Virus record (IMG/VR): IMGVR_UViG_2913137851_000001 | From: a virus | Lineage: Duplodnaviria > Heunggongvirae > Uroviricota > Caudoviricetes | Strand: one strand, 5' to 3' | DNA: 25,991 bases | In this document: positions 6,571 through 25,991 of the stretch, piece by piece | How positions within the stretch are numbered: the first letter of the stretch is position 1 | How the letters are laid out: each line of letters opens with the position of its first letter | Notes under the pieces: model-generated | Told to the model about the DNA's origin: nothing | Databases searched by the model: none | Seen by the model: only the letters and a program-made list of their open reading frames with translations | Program-made: the position numbers and the translations under genes

Positions 6571-7009
6571 ACAGGCTCGTGAGGCTCTGGATGCCTGGAT
6601 ATGTCGACCAGGAATGACACAGGAGCAGGCGACGATATTAATCACTGAAGCATTCTGGGCTTTGAAAGAGCGCCCGAACATCGATGTTCAGCGTGTCACA
6701 TATGAAGGTGGCGCGATTGATCAGCGAGCGCTTGGCGTTAATCGAGTGAAGATATTTGAACGCTGGAAGGCTATCGACACCAGGGATAAGCGTGAAAAGT
6801 TCACGGCGCTAGTGCCTGCAATTATGGAGGCTATCCGGATTAATGATTTCAGGTTGTATCGTGAAATTACTGACGGAAAAAGCATCACGTGCATGATCGC
6901 CGGGTTAAACAAAGAATATGGCGATGTGGTGGAGTCCGGACTGCTTTTTGCTGATCCTGCCGTAGTGGATCGTGAAACATTACTCATACCACGAAATAAA
7001 AGACGATGA
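6554..7009 (+). CDS. YdaT/YdfX-like (CII-like domain) protein
   Basis: 151-aa ORF overlapping the dicC 3' end by 17 nt. Occupies the position taken by ydaT after the cro-like gene in Rac-type immunity regions. Family assignment rests on weak recalled similarity. Confidence 0.5.
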   Translation: MKITPEQAREALDAWICRPGMTQEQATILITEAFWALKERPNIDVQRVTYEGGAIDQRALGVNRVKIFERWKAIDTRDKREKFTALVPAIMEAIRINDFRLYREITDGKSITCMIAGLNKEYGDVVESGLLFADPAVVDRETLLIPRNKRR

Positions 7010-7915: not shown

Positions 7916-8042
7916 ATACAGCGAACTCCATTGGTTTAGTTGGATATTTACTGTGCTGGACAAAAACGGTTTGCGGGGAAATCTTAGTTAAGTAGAATGA
8001 CTGCGGGTGCTTGAGGCTATCTGCCTCGGGCATGGACACCAA

Positions 8043-8046
8043 CGGC
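8043..8046. repeat. Target-site duplication (CGGC), left copy
   Basis: CGGC immediately flanks the IS terminus TGACCTGCC at 8047 and is repeated at 9268-9271. Confidence 0.7.
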
Positions 8047-8075
8047 TGACCTGCCCCCACGATTAGATACAACAC

Positions 8076-8909
8076 TCAGTTAGTAACGTCGGAATCTTCA
8101 TTCTCAGAATGACCCTTTCTCCAGCCCGCTGCAAATTCAGACGGTGTCTGATAATTCAGCGTGGAGTGCGGGCGGCATTCGTTATAATCCTGCCGCCAGT
8201 CATTAATAATTTTCCTGGCATGAACGATATCGCTGAACCAGTGCTCATTCAAACATTCATCGCGAAATCGTCCGTTAAAGCTCTCAATAAATCCGTTCTG
8301 CGTTGGCTTGCCCGGCTGGATTAAGCGCAACTCAACACCATGCTCAAAGGCCCATTGATCCAGTGCACGGCAAGTGAACTCCGGCCCCTGGTCAGTTCTT
8401 ATCGTCGCCGGATAGCCTCGAAACAGTGCAATGCTGTCCAGAATACGCGTGACCTGAACGCCTGAAATCCCAAAGGCAACAGTGACCGTCAGGCATTCCT
8501 TTGTGAAATCATCGACGCAGGTAAGACACTTGATCCTGCGACCGGTGGAAAGTGCGTCCATGACGAAATCCATCGACCAGGTCAGATTGGGCGCCGCCGG
8601 ACGGAGCAGCGGCAGACGTTCTGTTGCCAGCCCTTTACGACGTCTTCTGCGTTTTACGCCCAGGCCACTGAGGTGATAAAGCCGGTACACGCGCTTATGA
8701 TTAACATGAAGCCCTTCACGGCGCAGCAACTGCCAAATACGACGGTAGCCAAAACGCCTGCGCTCCAGTGCCAGCTCAGTGATGCGCCCTGATAAATGCG
8801 CATCAGCAGCCGGACGGTGAGCCTCATAGCGGCAGGTCGACAGGGATAAACCTGTAAGCCTGCAGGCACGACGTTGCGACAGACCGGTCGCATCACACAT
8901 CAACATCAC
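8076..8909 (-). CDS. IS3-family transposase OrfB (DDE integrase core)
   Basis: 277-aa ORF with a DDE/rve-like region (D ... D ... E with K/R, e.g. [19 protein letters not shown]). In the -1 frame relative to orfA. Confidence 0.8.
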
Positions 8910-8932
8910 GGCTTCCCGCTTCTGGTCTGTCG

Positions 8933-9196
8933 TCAGTACTTTCGCCCAAGAGCCACCTGAAGCGCCTCTTTATCCAGCATGGCTTCGGCAAGCAGCTTCT
9001 TGAGTCTGGTGTTCTCTTCCTCAAGCGACTTCAGGCGCTTAACTTCAGGCACCTCCATACCGCCATACTTCTTACGCCAGGTGTAAAACGTGGCATCGGA
9101 AATGGCATGCTTGCGGCAGAGTTCACGGGCGGGTACCCCAGCTTCGGCTTCGCGGAGAATACTGATGATCTGTTCGTCGGAAAAACGCTTCTTCAT
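8933..9196 (-). CDS. IS3-family transposase OrfA (HTH)
   Basis: 87 aa, [46 protein letters not shown]..., the typical IS3/IS407-type OrfA with HTH and leucine zipper. Confidence 0.8.
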
Positions 9197-9267
9197 GGGG
9201 ATGTCCTCATGTGGCTTATGAAGACATTACTAACATCGGGGTGTACTAATCAACGGGGAGCAGGTCA

Positions 9268-9271
9268 CGGC
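9268..9271. repeat. Target-site duplication (CGGC), right copy
   Basis: CGGC immediately after the IS terminus ...CAGGTCA at 9261-9267. Confidence 0.7.
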
Positions 9272-9474
9272 AGATAGAGAAAAGCCCCAGTTAACATTAC
9301 GCGTCCTGCAAGACGCTTAACATTAATCTGAGGCCAATTTCATGCTAGACACATGTAGGTTAGCCTCTTACGTGCCGAAAGGCACGGAGAAGCAGGCTAT
9401 TGTTAACACCAAGCTGTAATGTCCCCTTTGAACCATTCTAAAATGTCCCCAGACAATTCTCTGGGGGATTTTTC

Positions 9475-10788
9475 ATGATCAAAGAGACTGTTACGATGAG
9501 TCATAAGGAACTCCACCGACTTCAGATTATTCAGGAACAAGCTGCGGCACGCATTGGCATTTCTATTCGGCAGGTTAAACGTCTGGTGCAACGGTATAGA
9601 AATGAAGGGCCTTCTGGTCTGGTTTCCCACCGACGTGGAAAGCGTCCTAATAATTCCTTTTCTACTGAATTCAGAGCAACAGTAATTTCACTCCTCAAAG
9701 GCCGTTACGCTGATTTTGGACCTACGTTTGCGTGCGAAAAATTGCGCGAGATACACGGTTTATCTTTATCCGTTGAAACTCTCAGAAAGTGGATGATAGA
9801 AGAGGGGTTATGGCGTGAACGCCGTCGTAAAATTGCCCGTATATATCAACGCCGCATGCGACGACCATCTTACGGTGAACTGATCCAGATTGATGGCTCA
9901 CCTCATGACTGGTTTGAAAATCGAGGCCCCAGATGTACACTGATCGTTTTCATTGATGATGCCACCAGTGCGTTGATGGCGTTGCGTTTTGTGCCTGCTG
10001 AAACAACCCGGGCTTACATGGAAACCCTCCGGGGTTACCTTAATGATCATGGCGTACCGCTCGCTCTCTACTCTGATAGACACAGTATATTCAGGGTAAA
10101 TAACCCAGAGCGGGAAGGTGAGCTGACCCAGTTCACTCGTGCGATAAAGACACTGGGCATCGAGCCAATCCATGCCAACAGCCCGCAGGCAAAAGGGCGG
10201 GTAGAGCGCGCCAATCAGACACTACAGGACAGGCTGGTCAAAGAAATGCGGCTTCAGAATATCAGTGATATTGAAACAGCAAATGCATGGTTGCCGACCT
10301 TTATTGAAGCCTATAACAACCGGTTCGCTACGTCGCCTCGTACTACTGATAATGCTCATCTTGATGTGCACCATTCTGAAGAGGAACTGGGTTATATCTT
10401 CAGCCTACAGGCGAAGCGCGTTCTGTCTAAAAATCTCACTTTCCAGTACAAAAGCAGTGCGTTTCAGGTACGCAGTGAGGGCCGGGGATATCGACTTAGG
10501 CATTCGGTTGTTACTGTATGCGAGAACTTTGACGGTGAAATTAACGTTCTGTATGACGGGAAAGCGCTGGGCTGGGAAAAGTATGTTGATGGCCCGGAGC
10601 CTATACCACTGGATGATGAAAAGAGTGTCCATGAACGAGTGGATAATGCCCGTATTGATTTACGCTCAAAATACTATGTTAAACCTAAAGCTGACCATCC
10701 CTGGCTTACGCGCCGAACGCAAAGTCATCAGCAAGTTAAGCCCCCGAAGTTACCTAAAAAGAAGCCTGATCCCGATAAAAAAGATTGA
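9475..10788 (+). CDS. DDE transposase (IS481/ISNCY-like; N-terminal HTH plus integrase-core domain)
   Basis: 437-aa ORF with N-terminal HTH (ISIRQVKRLVQRY) and a central rve-like DDE region (IQIDGS...D, FIDDATS, SDRHSIF, KGRVERANQTL). Ends of the element were not identifiable by eye. Confidence 0.75.
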   Translation: MIKETVTMSHKELHRLQIIQEQAAARIGISIRQVKRLVQRYRNEGPSGLVSHRRGKRPNNSFSTEFRATVISLLKGRYADFGPTFACEKLREIHGLSLSVETLRKWMIEEGLWRERRRKIARIYQRRMRRPSYGELIQIDGSPHDWFENRGPRCTLIVFIDDATSALMALRFVPAETTRAYMETLRGYLNDHGVPLALYSDRHSIFRVNNPEREGELTQFTRAIKTLGIEPIHANSPQAKGRVERANQTLQDRLVKEMRLQNISDIETANAWLPTFIEAYNNRFATSPRTTDNAHLDVHHSEEELGYIFSLQAKRVLSKNLTFQYKSSAFQVRSEGRGYRLRHSVVTVCENFDGEINVLYDGKALGWEKYVDGPEPIPLDDEKSVHERVDNARIDLRSKYYVKPKADHPWLTRRTQSHQQVKPPKLPKKKPDPDKKD

Positions 10789-20916: not shown

Positions 20917-20973
20917 AGATAAACCTTCCATGTGATATGAGGGGGCGTAGTCTGCACGATTATCTAAATTGCT

Positions 20974-21147
20974 TCAATCTGGTCTGACCTGTTTTCTGAG
21001 CAATTCAGTAATGTCACTCTTTTCTTTGTTTGCTTCAGAAGAAACTCTTTTTTCTGAGCACAGTCTCCGGCGGCAGGCTTCAATGACCCAGGCTGAGAAA
21101 TTCCCGGACCCTTTTTGCTCAAGAGCGATGTTAATTTGTTCAATCAT
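20974..21147 (-). CDS. Possible small ribbon-helix-helix-like protein (57 aa)
   Basis: [33 protein letters not shown]... fits a beta-strand plus two-helix RHH pattern. No convincing SD. Lies antisense to the out-of-frame 5' part of the tail-fibre ORF. Confidence 0.3.
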
Positions 21148-22108
21148 TTGGTTAACCGCGCTGACAGACAATACGCAGGGGGCAGCAGGTCTTGAGTTAT
21201 ACGAGGTGTATAACAACGGATATCCAACAGCGTATGGAAATATCATTCACCTGAAAGGGATGACAGCCGTTGGCGAAGGTGAGTTACTCATCGGCTGGAG
21301 TGGTACAAGCGGTGCTCATGCTCCGGCATTTATTCGTTCACGACGGGATACGACCGACGCAAACTGGTCGCCGTGGGCGCAGCTTTACACCTCGGCTCAT
21401 CCTCCTGCAGAGTTTTATCCAGTCGGTGCACCAATCCCGTGGCCATCAGATACCGTTCCGTCTGGTTATGCCCTGATGCAGGGGCAGACTTTTGACAAAT
21501 CTGCATACCCGAAACTTGCAGTTGCTTATCCGTCAGGCGTGATCCCTGATATGCGTGGCTGGACGATTAAGGGCAAGCCCGCCAGTGGTCGGGCCGTATT
21601 ATCTCAGGAACAGGACGGCATTAAATCGCACACCCACAGCGCCAGCGCATCCAGTACGGATTTGGGGACGAAAACCACATCGTCGTTTGATTACGGAACC
21701 AAATCCACGAATAACACCGGGGCGCATACCCATAGTATTAGCGGGACCGCAAATAGTGCCGGTGCGCACCAACACAAGAGTTCCGGTGCATTTGGTGGCA
21801 CGAACACGAGCATTTTCCCTAATGGTTATACCGCGATTTCAAATCTAAGCGCGGGGATTATGAGCACAACAAGCGGTAGTGGCCAGACTCGTAATGCAGG
21901 GAAGACATCATCAGATGGTGCTCATACCCACTCGCTGTCCGGCACTGCTGCAAGCGCAGGCGCACATGCACATACTGTCGGTATTGGTGCTCATACGCAC
22001 TCCGTTGCGATTGGTTCACATGGACACACCATCACCGTTAACGCTGCTGGTAACGCGGAAAACACCGTCAAAAACATCGCATTTAACTATATTGTGAGGC
22101 TTGCATAA
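21128..22108 (+). pseudogene. stfQ: Side tail-fibre gene fragment (C-terminal domain only; 5'-truncated)
   Basis: C-terminal roughly 300 aa are tail-fibre-like, with Gly/Ser/Thr/His-rich repeats ([49 protein letters not shown]). The N-terminal about 60 aa of the ORF are low-complexity read-through. No upstream tail-fibre N-terminal domain exists. Followed directly by tfa. Confidence 0.7.
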
Positions 22109-22683
22109 TGGCATTCAGAATGAGTGAACAACCACGGACCATAAAAATTTATAATCTGCTGGCCGGAACTAATGAATTTATTGGTGAAGGTGATGCATAT
22201 ATTCCGCCTCATACAGGTCTGCCAGCAAACAGTACCGATATTGCACCGCCAGATATTCCGGCTGGCTTCGTGGCTGTTTTCAACAGTGATGAGTCATCGT
22301 GGCATCTCGTTGAAGATCATCGGGGTAAAACGGTTTATGACGTGGCTTCCGGCGACGCGTTATTTATTTCTGAACTCGGTCCGTTACCGGAAAATGTTAC
22401 CTGGTTATCGCCGGAAGGGGAGTTTCAGAAGTGGAACGGCACAGCCTGGGTGAAGGATACGGAAGCAGAAAAACTGTTCCGGATCCGGGAGGCGGAAGAA
22501 ACAAAAAACAACCTGATGCAGGTAGCCAGTGAGCATATTGCGCCGCTTCAGGATGCTGCAGATCTGGAAATTGCAACGGAGGAAGAAATCTCGTTGCTGG
22601 AAGCATGGAAAAAGTATCGGGTATTGCTGAACCGTGTTGATACGTCAACTGCACAGGATATTGAATGGCCAGCACTGCCGTAG
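22108..22683 (+). CDS. tfaQ: Tail-fibre assembly chaperone
   Basis: 191-aa ORF starting at the stop of the tail-fibre gene (ATAATGG overlap); typical Tfa N-terminus ([17 protein letters not shown]...). Confidence 0.8.
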
Positions 22684-22780
22684 GGTAAAACATATAAATT
22701 CTATAATTAGATGTATCTTTCCATTTACGGCAAGGAAGGGGGCTTGGAAGACGTAAAGCATCTCACACCGAGATTATTTT

Positions 22781-23371
22781 TTATATGTCAGGTGTCTGAA
22801 GTTTTGCTTTGGCTCTTAAAATGGTTTGCCGCGAGGTTTTGAATTCCCGGGCAATGGCACTTATACTTACACCTGACTTAATTCGTTCGAATACCGCCTG
22901 TTTCTGTTCTTCATTTAACACAGGTGGTCGACCAAAACGTTTCCCTGCGCCGCGGGCTCTTACTATCCCGGAATGAGTGCGTTCAAGTAAAAGGTCTCGT
23001 TCAAATTCAGCGACTGCTGAAATTACTTGCATCATCATTTTTCCTGTTGGACTGGTCAGGTCAATGCCCCCCAATGCTAAGCAATGCACTCTGATACCTG
23101 TTTCGGTCAGTTGTTCCACTGTTTTCCTGATATCCATTGCATTACAACCAAGGCGATCCAGTTTTGTCACAATCAATTGATCACCACATTTCAGGCGAGC
23201 AAGCAACCGGTTAAAACCAGGACGCTCACTGGTTGCTGCTGAGCCGCTAATGTGTTCTTCGATTATTTGCTGAGGTTTGATTTTAAAACCTGCACTTTCG
23301 ATTTCCCGGCGTTGATTTTCGGTGGTCTGATCCAGCGTTGATATCCGACAGTAAGCAAAAATTTGAGACAT
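22781..23371 (-). CDS. pinQ: Serine-recombinase DNA invertase (Pin/Gin/Hin family)
   Basis: 196 aa. N-terminal catalytic motif ([16 protein letters not shown] with the active-site Ser context), C-terminal HTH, and a resolvase-fold middle region. Confidence 0.88.
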
Positions 23372-23687: not shown

Positions 23688-23921
23688 TTACATTTTACCA
23701 TTTAAATTTTGGTTGTCTTTAAGAACTGATATCGCTGTTTGTAATAATTCTTTGTTATCCAGCCATGATTTTTTCTTTATGTTTCCTTCAATGTAATCAA
23801 GCAATGTTCTGGTATTGATAGGTCTTCCCTGTTTTGCTACTTCCACTACAGCATCCCCTAGGATAATTCTTACTTCAGGAAGCTGCGCAGGGAACCACTT
23901 TAGGGTGTCTTTTGATTTCAT
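23688..23921 (-). CDS. ydfK: YdfK/YnaE-family cold-shock-associated small protein
   Basis: 77 aa from the internal ATG: MKSKDTLKWFPAQLPEVRIILGDAVVEVAKQGRPINTRTLLDYIEGNIKK... AAGGA SD 8 nt upstream. Confidence 0.75.
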   Translation of the reverse strand: MKSKDTLKWFPAQLPEVRIILGDAVVEVAKQGRPINTRTLLDYIEGNIKKKSWLDNKELLQTAISVLKDNQNLNGKM

Positions 23922-24707
23922 GAAGATATTCCTTAAAATATTATTGATTTTCATTGCGATATTGTATGTCTGATTCAGGATATGTTGACTTATACATCGG
24001 TTTTGTCTGGGTTATTGGATATGCCAATCCCTAATTTTATTAGGGCATGACTAAAAATGCTGAATATGATAAGGAGAGATGTGATTATCAGTATGCTGTT
24101 CATATAGCCTCGAATTAGTAATGTGTTATATATGATATAGTTGACAATTTTTATCTTGGGTGTTCTTAAAGTTCGTAGATAAACATTGTCGTTTCAGGTA
24201 TACAGGAATGCTAACAGGTGGCAGCAAAAATCAGGCGGTTTATGGCGCAAGCTGAAGCGGCAACTGCAAACTATCTTATGTAGAGACTCTACACGGATTG
24301 GGTTTAAAAGTATACATAGATAACAGTTTTTATCTGAAAAAGAAAAATATCAAGGTGATATAGCCTATATGCCTTTGATGCGGAGGAATGAATGTGATGG
24401 GAGTGATGTATCTGAATAGTTGAAAAACCGCAGACACGCCTTATGCAAGAACGTGCTGCGATTGGCTGGTAAATTTTTCGATAGTGTGAGTATTGAATGA
24501 TTTCCAGCCGTTCTTGATTTTACGCATAAATCCATGAAAAAACTACTTATCTGTTGGGGAGTTTTTTTGGGGCATATATGGGACAGAAATAGGCCCCAGA
24601 TAGACACTGAGATCGAACTTAGGATGCTTTTTAAAAAAATGCAACTATCTGAAAAAACCTAGAAAACGCCAAGGAAACCACAGGATGGGAAAAAACACCT
24701 GTGAATT

Positions 24708-25991
24708 ATGGATTTCCAGTTATATTCGCTCGGCGCAGCGTTAGTGTTTCATGAAATATTTTTTCCTGAATCATCAACGGCAATGGCGTTAATTCTGGCA
24801 ATGGGAACCTACGGTGCAGGTTATGTGGCGCGTATTGTCGGAGCATTTATTTTCGGCAAAATGGGCGACAGAATAGGGCGTAAAAAAGTGCTCTTTATTA
24901 CCATCACCATGATGGGGATCTGTACCACCTTAATTGGTGTGTTACCGACCTATGCACAGATTGGTGTTTTTGCACCCATCTTGCTGGTGACGTTGCGTAT
25001 TATTCAGGGGTTGGGTGCAGGTGCGGAAATTTCCGGTGCCGGTACGATGCTGGCGGAATATGCGCCAAAAGGTAAGCGCGGAATTATCTCCTCATTTGTG
25101 GCTATGGGAACTAACTGCGGAACCTTGAGCGCAACGGCAATCTGGGCCTTTATGTTCTTCATTCTCAGTAAAGAGGAACTGCTGGCGTGGGGATGGCGTA
25201 TACCGTTCCTGGCGAGCGTTGTCGTGATGGTCTTTGCTATCTGGTTGCGTATGAATCTGAAAGAAAGCCCGGTCTTTGAGAAGGTTAACGACAGTAACCA
25301 ACCGACAGCAAAACCTGCACCTGCTGGTAGCATGTTCCAGAGCAAATCCTTCTGGCTGGCAACAGGGCTGCGTTTTGGTCAGGCGGGTAACTCCGGGTTA
25401 ATTCAGACTTTCCTTGCAGGCTATTTAGTGCAGACGTTATTGTTTAACAAAGCAATTCCAACAGATGCATTGATGATCAGTTCGATTCTCGGCTTTATGA
25501 CCATTCCGTTCCTTGGTTGGTTATCCGATAAAATTGGTCGCCGGATCCCGTATATTATTATGAATACCTCCGCGATTGTGCTGGCATGGCCAATGCTTTC
25601 TATCATTGTAGATAAAAGCTATGCCCCGAGCACCATTATGGTTGCACTGATTGTGATTCATAACTGTGCGGTGCTGGGATTATTTGCTCTGGAAAACATT
25701 ACCATGGCAGAAATGTTCGGCTGTAAAAACCGCTTTACCCGGATGGCTATTTCTAAAGAAATTGGTGATCTTATCGCTTCCGGTTTTGGTCCTATCCTGG
25801 CGGGTATTTTCTGCACCATGACGGAATCCTGGTATCCGATCGCCATTATGATCATGGCATATTCAGTGATTGGTTTAATCTCTGCGCTGAAAATGCCAGA
25901 GGTGAAAGACCGTGATTTAAGTGCGCTGGAAGACGCTGCGGAAGATCAACCGCGTGTTGTAAGAGCTGCGCAACCTTCCAGAAGTCTGTAA
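24708..25991 (+). CDS. ydfJ: MFS (metabolite:H+ symporter family) transporter, N-terminally truncated by prophage insertion
   Basis: 427-aa ORF with multiple TM helices and MFS signature (GxxxDRxGRK, IGVLPTYAQIG). Alignment by recall to ShiA-type MHS transporters indicates about 30 N-terminal residues are missing. An in-frame TGA lies 2 codons upstream of the first ATG. Confidence 0.8.
   Translation: MDFQLYSLGAALVFHEIFFPESSTAMALILAMGTYGAGYVARIVGAFIFGKMGDRIGRKKVLFITITMMGICTTLIGVLPTYAQIGVFAPILLVTLRIIQGLGAGAEISGAGTMLAEYAPKGKRGIISSFVAMGTNCGTLSATAIWAFMFFILSKEELLAWGWRIPFLASVVVMVFAIWLRMNLKESPVFEKVNDSNQPTAKPAPAGSMFQSKSFWLATGLRFGQAGNSGLIQTFLAGYLVQTLLFNKAIPTDALMISSILGFMTIPFLGWLSDKIGRRIPYIIMNTSAIVLAWPMLSIIVDKSYAPSTIMVALIVIHNCAVLGLFALENITMAEMFGCKNRFTRMAISKEIGDLIASGFGPILAGIFCTMTESWYPIAIMIMAYSVIGLISALKMPEVKDRDLSALEDAAEDQPRVVRAAQPSRSL

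Follow-up and report, generated by a model that had tools for sequence, protein, structure and literature searches.

A recurrent TA deletion endpoint in the side tail-fibre gene of Qin-type prophages and the PinQ recombinase encoded nearby

Gin (phage Mu), Cin (P1), PinE (e14) and Hin are two-domain small serine recombinases that are encoded beside tail-fibre and chaperone genes, depend on Fis and act on 26-bp crossover sites. Members of this family can replace one another, and their sites flank, in inverted orientation, a segment that holds two alternative tail-fibre/chaperone cassettes or a promoter. The subject of this study is a locus with a comparable set of genes: pinQ, a recombinase gene of the cryptic lambdoid prophage Qin, together with the truncated side tail-fibre gene (stfQ) and the tail-fibre assembly gene (tfaQ) that lie next to it. 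It is contained in a stretch of 25,991 nucleotides, in the following referred to as the window, which is filed in IMG/VR as a virus of the Caudoviricetes (IMGVR_UViG_2913137851_000001). The window is the Escherichia coli C version of Qin and includes the right arm of the prophage; its gene set is textbook K-12 biology and already known. New here is the finding that the stf gene is cut at a TA dinucleotide, in the context GGG-TA-ACCGCG, where at least 15 deletions of independent origin end precisely. While the two-domain recombinase, the neighbouring tail-fibre and chaperone genes and an stf tip resembling the Sv' region of P1 are features shared with the invertase systems, the PinQ locus differs from them in having no crossover sites, no second tail-fibre cassette, a convergent gene orientation, a different helix-turn-helix sequence and a cysteine in the position of a catalytic arginine.

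Two further kinds of systems invite comparison. Tn3 and gamma-delta resolvases, which show a similar sequence relatedness to PinQ (E about 1e-22), exchange strands at a palindromic dinucleotide in the centre of the site and delete the DNA between directly oriented sites. This habit matches the pattern that we describe below, in which the overlap is TA and the outcomes are deletions only. Unlike in the resolvase systems, there is no three-subsite res beside pinQ, the putative preferred site is present in a single copy within coding sequence 1.6 kb away, and the equivalent of R71 is a cysteine. Likewise, Int of phage lambda makes b-region deletions that end in attP, and Cin recombines at quasi-cix sites with the same central dinucleotide. 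These recombinase-anchored deletions have one fixed crossover endpoint, many secondary partners and a requirement for identity of the overlap bases in common with the locus described here. They differ in that they concern named enzymes and laboratory isolates, whereas we are dealing with a candidate enzyme, a TA overlap and natural prophage decay across many strains.

The closest described system is PinQ/PinR of the K-12 prophages Qin and Rac (Kirigo et al., 2025; PMC12529663). The E. coli C protein is identical to K-12 PinQ, with which it shares the RefSeq accession WP_000078177.1, and 99% identical to PinR; the neighbours tfaQ, the stf remnant and ydfK are shared as well. In contrast to K-12 Qin, the E. 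coli C copy lacks a further 968 bp, which comprise the 5' end of ynfO and nohA, and its host is without e14 at icd.

A fixed deletion endpoint in stf

The window retains the last 318 codons and the stop codon of a 1025-codon side tail-fibre gene (positions 21152–22108, plus strand). This remnant encodes a Collar domain and fibre repeats and has no start codon of its own; an intact homologue with all 1025 codons is present in the phages PhiR42_1 and mEp460. In the NCBI Prokaryotic Genome Annotation Pipeline (PGAP), the gene is a pseudogene without its N-terminus. The initial annotation, which was made from the window's sequence alone, had similarly described a 5'-truncated gene that retains only its variable C-terminal domain, with tfa beside it. 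The truncation is borne out, and the term 'variable C-terminal domain' is a fair description of these 318 codons, the first ~220 nt of which are 71% identical to the Sv' region within the P1 invertible segment. The adjacent chaperone gene tfaQ (22108–22683, plus strand) is indeed intact, with a Caudo_TAP match (E 3.6e-43) and a RefSeq accession shared with K-12 TfaQ. The proposed start of the tail-fibre gene at 20969 has to be given up, as it is merely the start of a mechanical open reading frame (ORF) that opens with TTG. In alignments with K-12, LR-58-1 and the intact phages, true tail-fibre sequence begins at 21152–21154, and the preceding 20969–21153 is the antisense of a ynfO remnant.

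This ynfO-like remnant (YlcI/YnfO family; 20974–21171, minus strand) has a Pfam DUF3950 match with an E-value of 4.4e-21 and is annotated as a RefSeq coding sequence in strain NCTC122, at locus positions 6575–6772. The 379-codon ORF from 20969 overlaps it on the opposite strand. The K-12 ynfO gene is longer (234 bp); in E. coli C, its original 5' end was removed by the deletion. The start of the annotated YnfO-family gene thus crosses the deletion junction, and its first codons are antisense stf sequence.

The junction itself (junction R, 21152–21153) falls on a TA, formed by T 21153 and A 21154, that is common to both parental sequences. To its right follows AACCGCGCTGACA (21154–21166, plus strand), the half-site that is kept in every deletion anchored at this junction; in intact stf, the site reads GGTCGGG-TA-ACCGCGCTGACAG. 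The sequence missing at the E. coli C junction amounts to 968 bp in comparison with K-12, 1550 bp in comparison with LR-58-1 and ~22 kb in comparison with intact phage. This exact junction is found in only seven complete genomes, all of which belong to the E. coli C lineage. The right side of the junction is identical to the nucleotide in three Qin variants, which read TTTGGT-TA-ACCGCG in E. coli C, TGAATA-TA-ACCGCG in K-12 and CGCCAG-TA-ACCGCG in LR-58-1.

We looked in IMG/VR for loci that contain the sequence following the junction on its right, or the AGCC variant of this sequence. Most of the loci have the intact left flank, but 12 further distinct flanks that do not derive from stf are joined at exactly the same nucleotide, which brings the number of different deletions to at least 15 when the window, K-12 and LR-58-1 are included. 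The 12 flanks derive from terminase, portal, capsid, head-tail and tape-measure genes; for the deletions as a whole, the left ends lie in ynfO, nohA and the terminase, portal, capsid, tape-measure and J genes. In one more locus, it is the left side that was kept, and the deletion extends from the same TA to the right, into tfa. Hence, 15 leftward junctions and one rightward junction meet at a single TA (in the window and loci L017, L022, L028, L031, L037, L038, L051, L056, L125 and L137–L142), as they would at a site-specific recombination site.

The sequences on the other side of these deletions have features in common as well. For 12 events, the parental sequence of the partner could be recovered from other loci, and 11 of them have a TA at the crossover point, against a chance expectation of 1/16. 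The partner of L138, for instance, is a good pseudo-site and reads GATGAGTGCGGT-TA-TCACGG. All eight partners that were mapped on PhiR42_1 lie upstream of the site and are collinear with it, and the events are therefore deletions, not inversions. When the right half-site is mirrored, the retained partner halves agree with it at a mean of 5.07 of 12 positions, compared with 3.30 for all 669 other TA sites in this part of the phage (Mann–Whitney p = 8.5e-5), which is a statistical preference over 15 sites and was found after looking. Their consensus, gCGGT-TA, is the reverse complement of TA-ACCGC, and their resemblance to the left flank that they replaced is just weak (p = 0.04). A shared TA is likewise the crossover point of two neighbouring deletions that involve other sites, namely one from terminase to stf in DLI.5a and one from nohA to J in LR-58-1.

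As a control, we applied the same procedure to the Rac-type stf, where it yielded mosaic boundaries with one or two types of left flank each and no multi-partner position. Three junctions in Rac-type stf that look like truncations begin with TAACGG, TAACCGCC and TACCGG, and TAT may be the start of a fourth if one mismatch is allowed. In stfR of K-12 Rac (L004, 1470–1480), the sequence TTA-ACCGCC is a look-alike of the Qin half-site, and one IMG/VR locus is truncated exactly there (set L170, L167 and L190). We also considered a homology end that recurs near the tfa stop codon (~22670) as a second multi-partner junction and rejected it as ordinary mosaicism at a conserved gene end.

At its one chromosomal site, Qin occurs in several deletion states, represented by E. 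coli C, K-12, LR-58-1 (L003, 4700–5306) and DLI.5a (L009, 3390–3433). These states cannot all derive from one another, and the decay must therefore have been repeated in different lineages. The terminase-to-stf junction of the type seen in L031 and L064 is apparently also present in strain S3.

The PinQ protein and its reported activity

The pinQ gene (22781–23371, minus strand) is an uninterrupted ORF for 196 amino acids and convergent with tfaQ. Its product consists of a Resolvase domain (PF00239, E 2.5e-36, residues 4–144) and an HTH_7 domain (PF02796, E 2e-11, residues 147–190); neither PinQ nor TfaQ nor the stf tip has a specific model in NCBIfam. The recombinase copies in PhiR42_1 and mEp460 are 98–99% identical to it. 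With more than 98% identity to K-12 PinQ and PinR, and with its gene following stf-tfa at the att-proximal end of a lambdoid prophage, the protein belongs to the PinQ/PinR type.

Strictly speaking, its assignment to the Pin family by the initial annotation does not hold. The identity of PinQ amounts to 38.9% with PinE, 36.3% with Cin and 35.8% with Gin, while these three share 75–82% identity with one another. Among solved structures, PinQ matches Gin best (E 1.6e-29), followed by gamma-delta resolvase (E 9e-23); Tn3 resolvase is matched as well. Its helix-turn-helix sequence is unlike that of PinE, Gin and Cin. Judged by these sequence comparisons, PinQ represents a lineage separate from the Gin/Cin/Hin/PinE invertases and is about as close to gamma-delta resolvase. 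L092 and L093, from Shigella and E. coli, seemed to encode PinQ relatives at a greater distance, but were rejected as a source of genomic context, as they turned out to be frameshifted, low-quality copies of the Qin and Rac genes.

The catalytic residues are only partly conserved. From the set known in Tn3 resolvase (Y6, R8, S10, D36, R68 and R71), PinQ has kept Y7, R9, S11 (codon 23339–23341) and R73, but has a glutamate in place of D36 and a cysteine, Cys76 (codon 23144–23146), in place of R71. The corresponding motif is DRLGC in PinQ, PinR and the copies in functional phages, and DRLGR in Gin, Cin, PinE, gamma-delta and Tn3 resolvase; homologues from other proteobacteria that are 61–70% identical to PinQ have kept the arginine. 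In Tn3 resolvase, R71 is one of six residues whose mutation abolishes recombination (PMC2794168). In the R71A and R71K mutants, recombination is abolished and strands are cleaved ~1000-fold more slowly, although the mutants were described as 'not inert' (PMC2794168). The earlier impression that pinQ looks intact is hence correct in so far as the 196-codon gene is open and encodes both domains, with the caveat that Cys76 replaces a catalytic arginine.

The sole experimentally reported activity of PinQ is an increased inversion of the e14 P segment in trans. In K-12, overproduction of PinQ raised the inversion of this 1797-bp segment from ~30% to 88%, and deletion of pinQ lowered it; the inversion gives rise to a chimeric StfE2 protein that blocks the adsorption of phage T2 (Kirigo et al., 2025; PMC12529663). 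In database searches, the same authors found inversions only in e14 and none in Qin or Rac. They further report that deletion of pinE locks the P segment despite the presence of pinQ and pinR, and the main text and strain list include neither a catalytic mutant nor an overexpression of pinQ in a pinE deletion (PMC12529663). For these reasons, direct catalysis by PinQ at the Gin-type sites of e14 is not established by the main text of that study and is not settled. The suggestion in the initial annotation that the enzyme could act in trans on other prophages has thus found a published counterpart in the e14 P segment, but this substrate is absent from icd in E. coli C NCTC122 (L136), where icd lies directly beside iraM; this attachment site was the only one inspected. 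At the usual e14 site, E. coli C is without pinE, mcrA and the P segment.

A somewhat unlikely, but substantial alternative is that PinQ is catalytically crippled, and that its effect on e14 is an indirect one, via PinE or via the selection of pre-existing inverted cells; PinQ would then be neither the enzyme behind the stf deletions nor a true trans invertase. This would agree with Cys76 in the position in which Tn3 resolvase mutants do not recombine (PMC2794168), with a helix-turn-helix region unlike those of PinE, Gin and Cin, with a P segment that is locked in the pinE deletion although pinQ and pinR are there, and with the absence of a catalytic mutant and of a pinE-deleted overexpression strain from the main text (PMC12529663). 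Against it stand the increase from ~30% to 88% upon overproduction and the reduced inversion upon pinQ deletion, the retention of the cysteine in functional phages, and the description of the R71 mutants as 'not inert'. With such a substitution at a position on which Tn3 resolvase depends, the published e14 data need a control with a catalytic mutant.

INTERPRETING THE HOT SPOT

We consider it probable that a site-specific process underlies the junctions in stf. The fixed endpoint, the two-base identity, the mirror-symmetric flank preference and the deletion-only outcomes, taken together, point to the footprint of a site-specific recombinase with a two-base stagger. Two-base staggered cuts are characteristic of serine recombinases, while tyrosine recombinases use 6–8 bases and DDE transposases leave their element behind. 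The most economical mechanism would be an exchange by such a recombinase between one preferred site in stf and various pseudo-sites in direct orientation, which would result in the deletion of the intervening DNA.

The prime suspect would be the PinQ/PinR-type enzyme, which is encoded 1.6 kb from the site. It is the only serine recombinase in the annotated intact phage genome, the others being a tyrosine integrase and insertion sequence (IS) transposases. Furthermore, a pin gene follows downstream in 8 of the 9 deletion events with enough flanking sequence, while the same is true of 18 of the 45 loci whose site is intact (Fisher p = 0.009); this association is inflated or confounded by shared ancestry. 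As an overall explanation, we moderately favour a native Qin right arm with a recombinase of the separate PinQ lineage, in which stf was cut at a recombinase-like TA hot spot and PinQ/PinR is the prime suspect. The identification of PinQ/PinR as the agent of the process is in itself tentative. In its most specific form, the proposal is that the TA in GGG-TA-ACCGCG might be the preferred crossover site of a resolvase-like activity with a TA core, most plausibly that of PinQ/PinR, which would fuse it to pseudo-sites resembling CGGT-TA and thereby delete head and tail genes; we put this forward as a possibility that falls short of even chances.

Several observations weigh against this reading. 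Cys76 may render PinQ a poor catalyst, given the effects of the R71 exchanges in Tn3 resolvase and the arginine kept by homologues. Searches of the intact phage and of the window, including the vicinity of pinQ, for a second copy of the site gave nothing above chance, be it with a 32-nt template, core palindromes, a weight matrix of the pseudo-sites or GCGGTTAACCGC with three mismatches. Rac has PinR beside stfR, yet stfR does not contain this stf module, and some deletion loci have no pin gene nearby (L031 and L064, as well as L170 for the Rac type). In addition, the partner of L056 reads TT or CT instead of TA in the available references, and the half-site preference, as stated above, emerged after looking. 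A candidate for a direct-repeat partner, GTAGGGTAA at the tfaQ stop codon, was dropped, since a match of 8/9 is expected several times per window.

The hot spot could also be real and yet be the work of another enzyme, either a different recombinase with a TA core or a nuclease supplied by the host or by a co-resident element, with PinQ as a mere neighbour. We regard this as unlikely. It would explain that the site is found in many stf genes without pin downstream (27 of the 45 intact loci) and that some of the deletion loci are pin-less too, and it is compatible with the lack of the R71-equivalent arginine in PinQ; moreover, no binding site is known for PinQ, and none recurs near its gene. 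However, the annotation of the intact phage includes no further serine recombinase, and tyrosine recombinases, gyrase and DDE transposases do not leave a two-base overlap. The att core, which we considered as a source of the deletions, was rejected, as its sequence is unrelated to the hot-spot site. Finally, copies of PinQ/PinR are frequent in E. coli prophages, so that action in trans can explain the pin-less loci.

Still less credible, and in our view very unlikely, is a non-enzymatic origin, in which a DNA structure or a replication pause at this position gave rise to slippage at microhomologies or to end-joining. The junctions share just 2–3 nt, as is the case in illegitimate recombination, and the partner of L022 shares 8 nt, TAACCGCG. 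But the microhomology is no random dinucleotide: it is TA in 11 of 12 events anchored at junction R and in both neighbouring deletions. The partner flanks are closer to the inverted right half (p = 8.5e-5) than to the left flank that they replaced (p = 0.04), which is the opposite of what slippage between direct repeats would produce, and either side of the site can be retained with single-nucleotide precision.

Native layout and the surrounding prophage

The initial annotation took PinQ for an orphaned invertase beside a truncated tail-fibre gene that has no alternative inverted copy, and found no canonical pair of crossover sites around stf-tfa. The absence of these elements is confirmed. 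From the records of P1, Mu and e14 themselves, we took the cix, gix and pix sites and derived a weight matrix of their half-sites. Across the entire window, the best match scores 11.3 bits, compared with 27–30 for true sites and a mean maximum of 12.0 for shuffled windows; there is consequently no AAACC-NN-GGTTT pair, nor could a matched inverted pair of 26-bp sites be found around stf-tfa. The same scan found no Din-type crossover site in Rac or in the intact phages PhiR42_1 and mEp460. No pair of inverted repeats brackets stf-tfa, the best inverted repeats being 12–26 nt long, 73–92% complementary and scattered, and the window, PhiR42_1 and mEp460 each have one stf and one tfa, with no second, inverted cassette. 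A nucleotide comparison of the window with the e14 P region revealed no similarity, so that the two could not be aligned. The suggestion that pinQ may have no cognate substrate here is thus accurate for a substrate of the Gin/Pin type beside the gene.

What does not stand is the notion of an orphan. In PhiR42_1 and mEp460, the gene order is J, lom, an stf gene for 1025 amino acids and a single tfa, followed by the recombinase on the opposite strand, and Rac in K-12 is built alike, with a complete stfR. Since functional Qin-like phages with a full-length stf share the stf, tfa and convergent pin layout, and are likewise without a second cassette and crossover sites, 'orphaned by decay' is the wrong description. 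The orientation differs from that of the invertase systems as well: the 3' end of pinQ faces tfaQ at a distance of 97 bp, whereas in gin, cin and pinE it is the 5' end, which in this family carries the Fis-dependent enhancer, that adjoins the invertible segment. Except for the missing front of stf, the window thus shows the native, ancestral arrangement, and PinQ never controlled a local invertible tail-fibre cassette. That PinQ is a tail-fibre invertase of the Gin/Pin type which lost its segment and sites by prophage decay is highly improbable: its place next to stf and tfa, the relationship of the stf tip to P1 Sv' and its being named for similarity to Pin speak for it, but the intact functional relatives without second cassette or crossover sites, the family identity of just 36–39% and the orientation of pinQ speak against it.

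A 3.5-kb query around the locus is 100% identical to complete E. coli genomes and contiguous only in E. coli C strains (NCTC122, C122, WG5 and derivatives, and PA11). In NCTC122, the RefSeq gene order is cspI, gnsB, ydfO, the YlcI/YnfO-family gene, the tail-protein pseudogene 'missing N-terminus', tfaQ, pinQ, ydfK, ynfT and a truncated ydfJ. The gene for the cold-shock-induced small protein YdfK (23688–23921, minus strand) belongs to a conserved right-arm module that Rac and the intact phages share. The right boundary between prophage and host, attR (24700–24720), lies where the phage homology ends (~24716), and the truncated ydfJ follows. In the pin-less locus L064 (6493–9428; also in L031), the slot after tfa is filled by two large ORFs for 605 and 373 amino acids, and may be a position for accessory or defence cargo.

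PhiR42_1 (L078, PV340562.1) is a functional, induced phage and essentially an intact Qin, with a dicC-like cro, relBE, flxA, cspB/cspF and ydfK. It is collinear with the entire window, from the integrase gene to the attachment site, except for deletions and one IS insertion. The latter is an insertion of 1220 bp relative to PhiR42_1 (8047–9266), which has a 5-bp repeat of phage sequence at its flanks and encodes an IS3-family (IS2 InsD-like) transposase at 8076–8909 on the minus strand. At 6978|6979, ~2.25 kb of the phage early region is gone (PhiR42_1 8042–10295, encoding replication protein O, LygF and a methyltransferase); this junction has no TA overlap, in contrast to the deletions in the morphogenesis region. 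The PhiR42_1 genome is thereby a useful reference for reconstructing the decay of Qin.

PinQ is not a Gin-type invertase, and even in intact phages it has no invertible segment nearby. The hot spot in stf offers a concrete candidate DNA site to test with PinQ and PinR, and it suggests a possible route by which structural genes are lost from lambdoid prophages. If the proposed connection is true, a recombinase that is carried by the phage itself would drive lambdoid prophages into immobile remnants, and the native DNA target of PinQ/PinR would have been identified for the first time.

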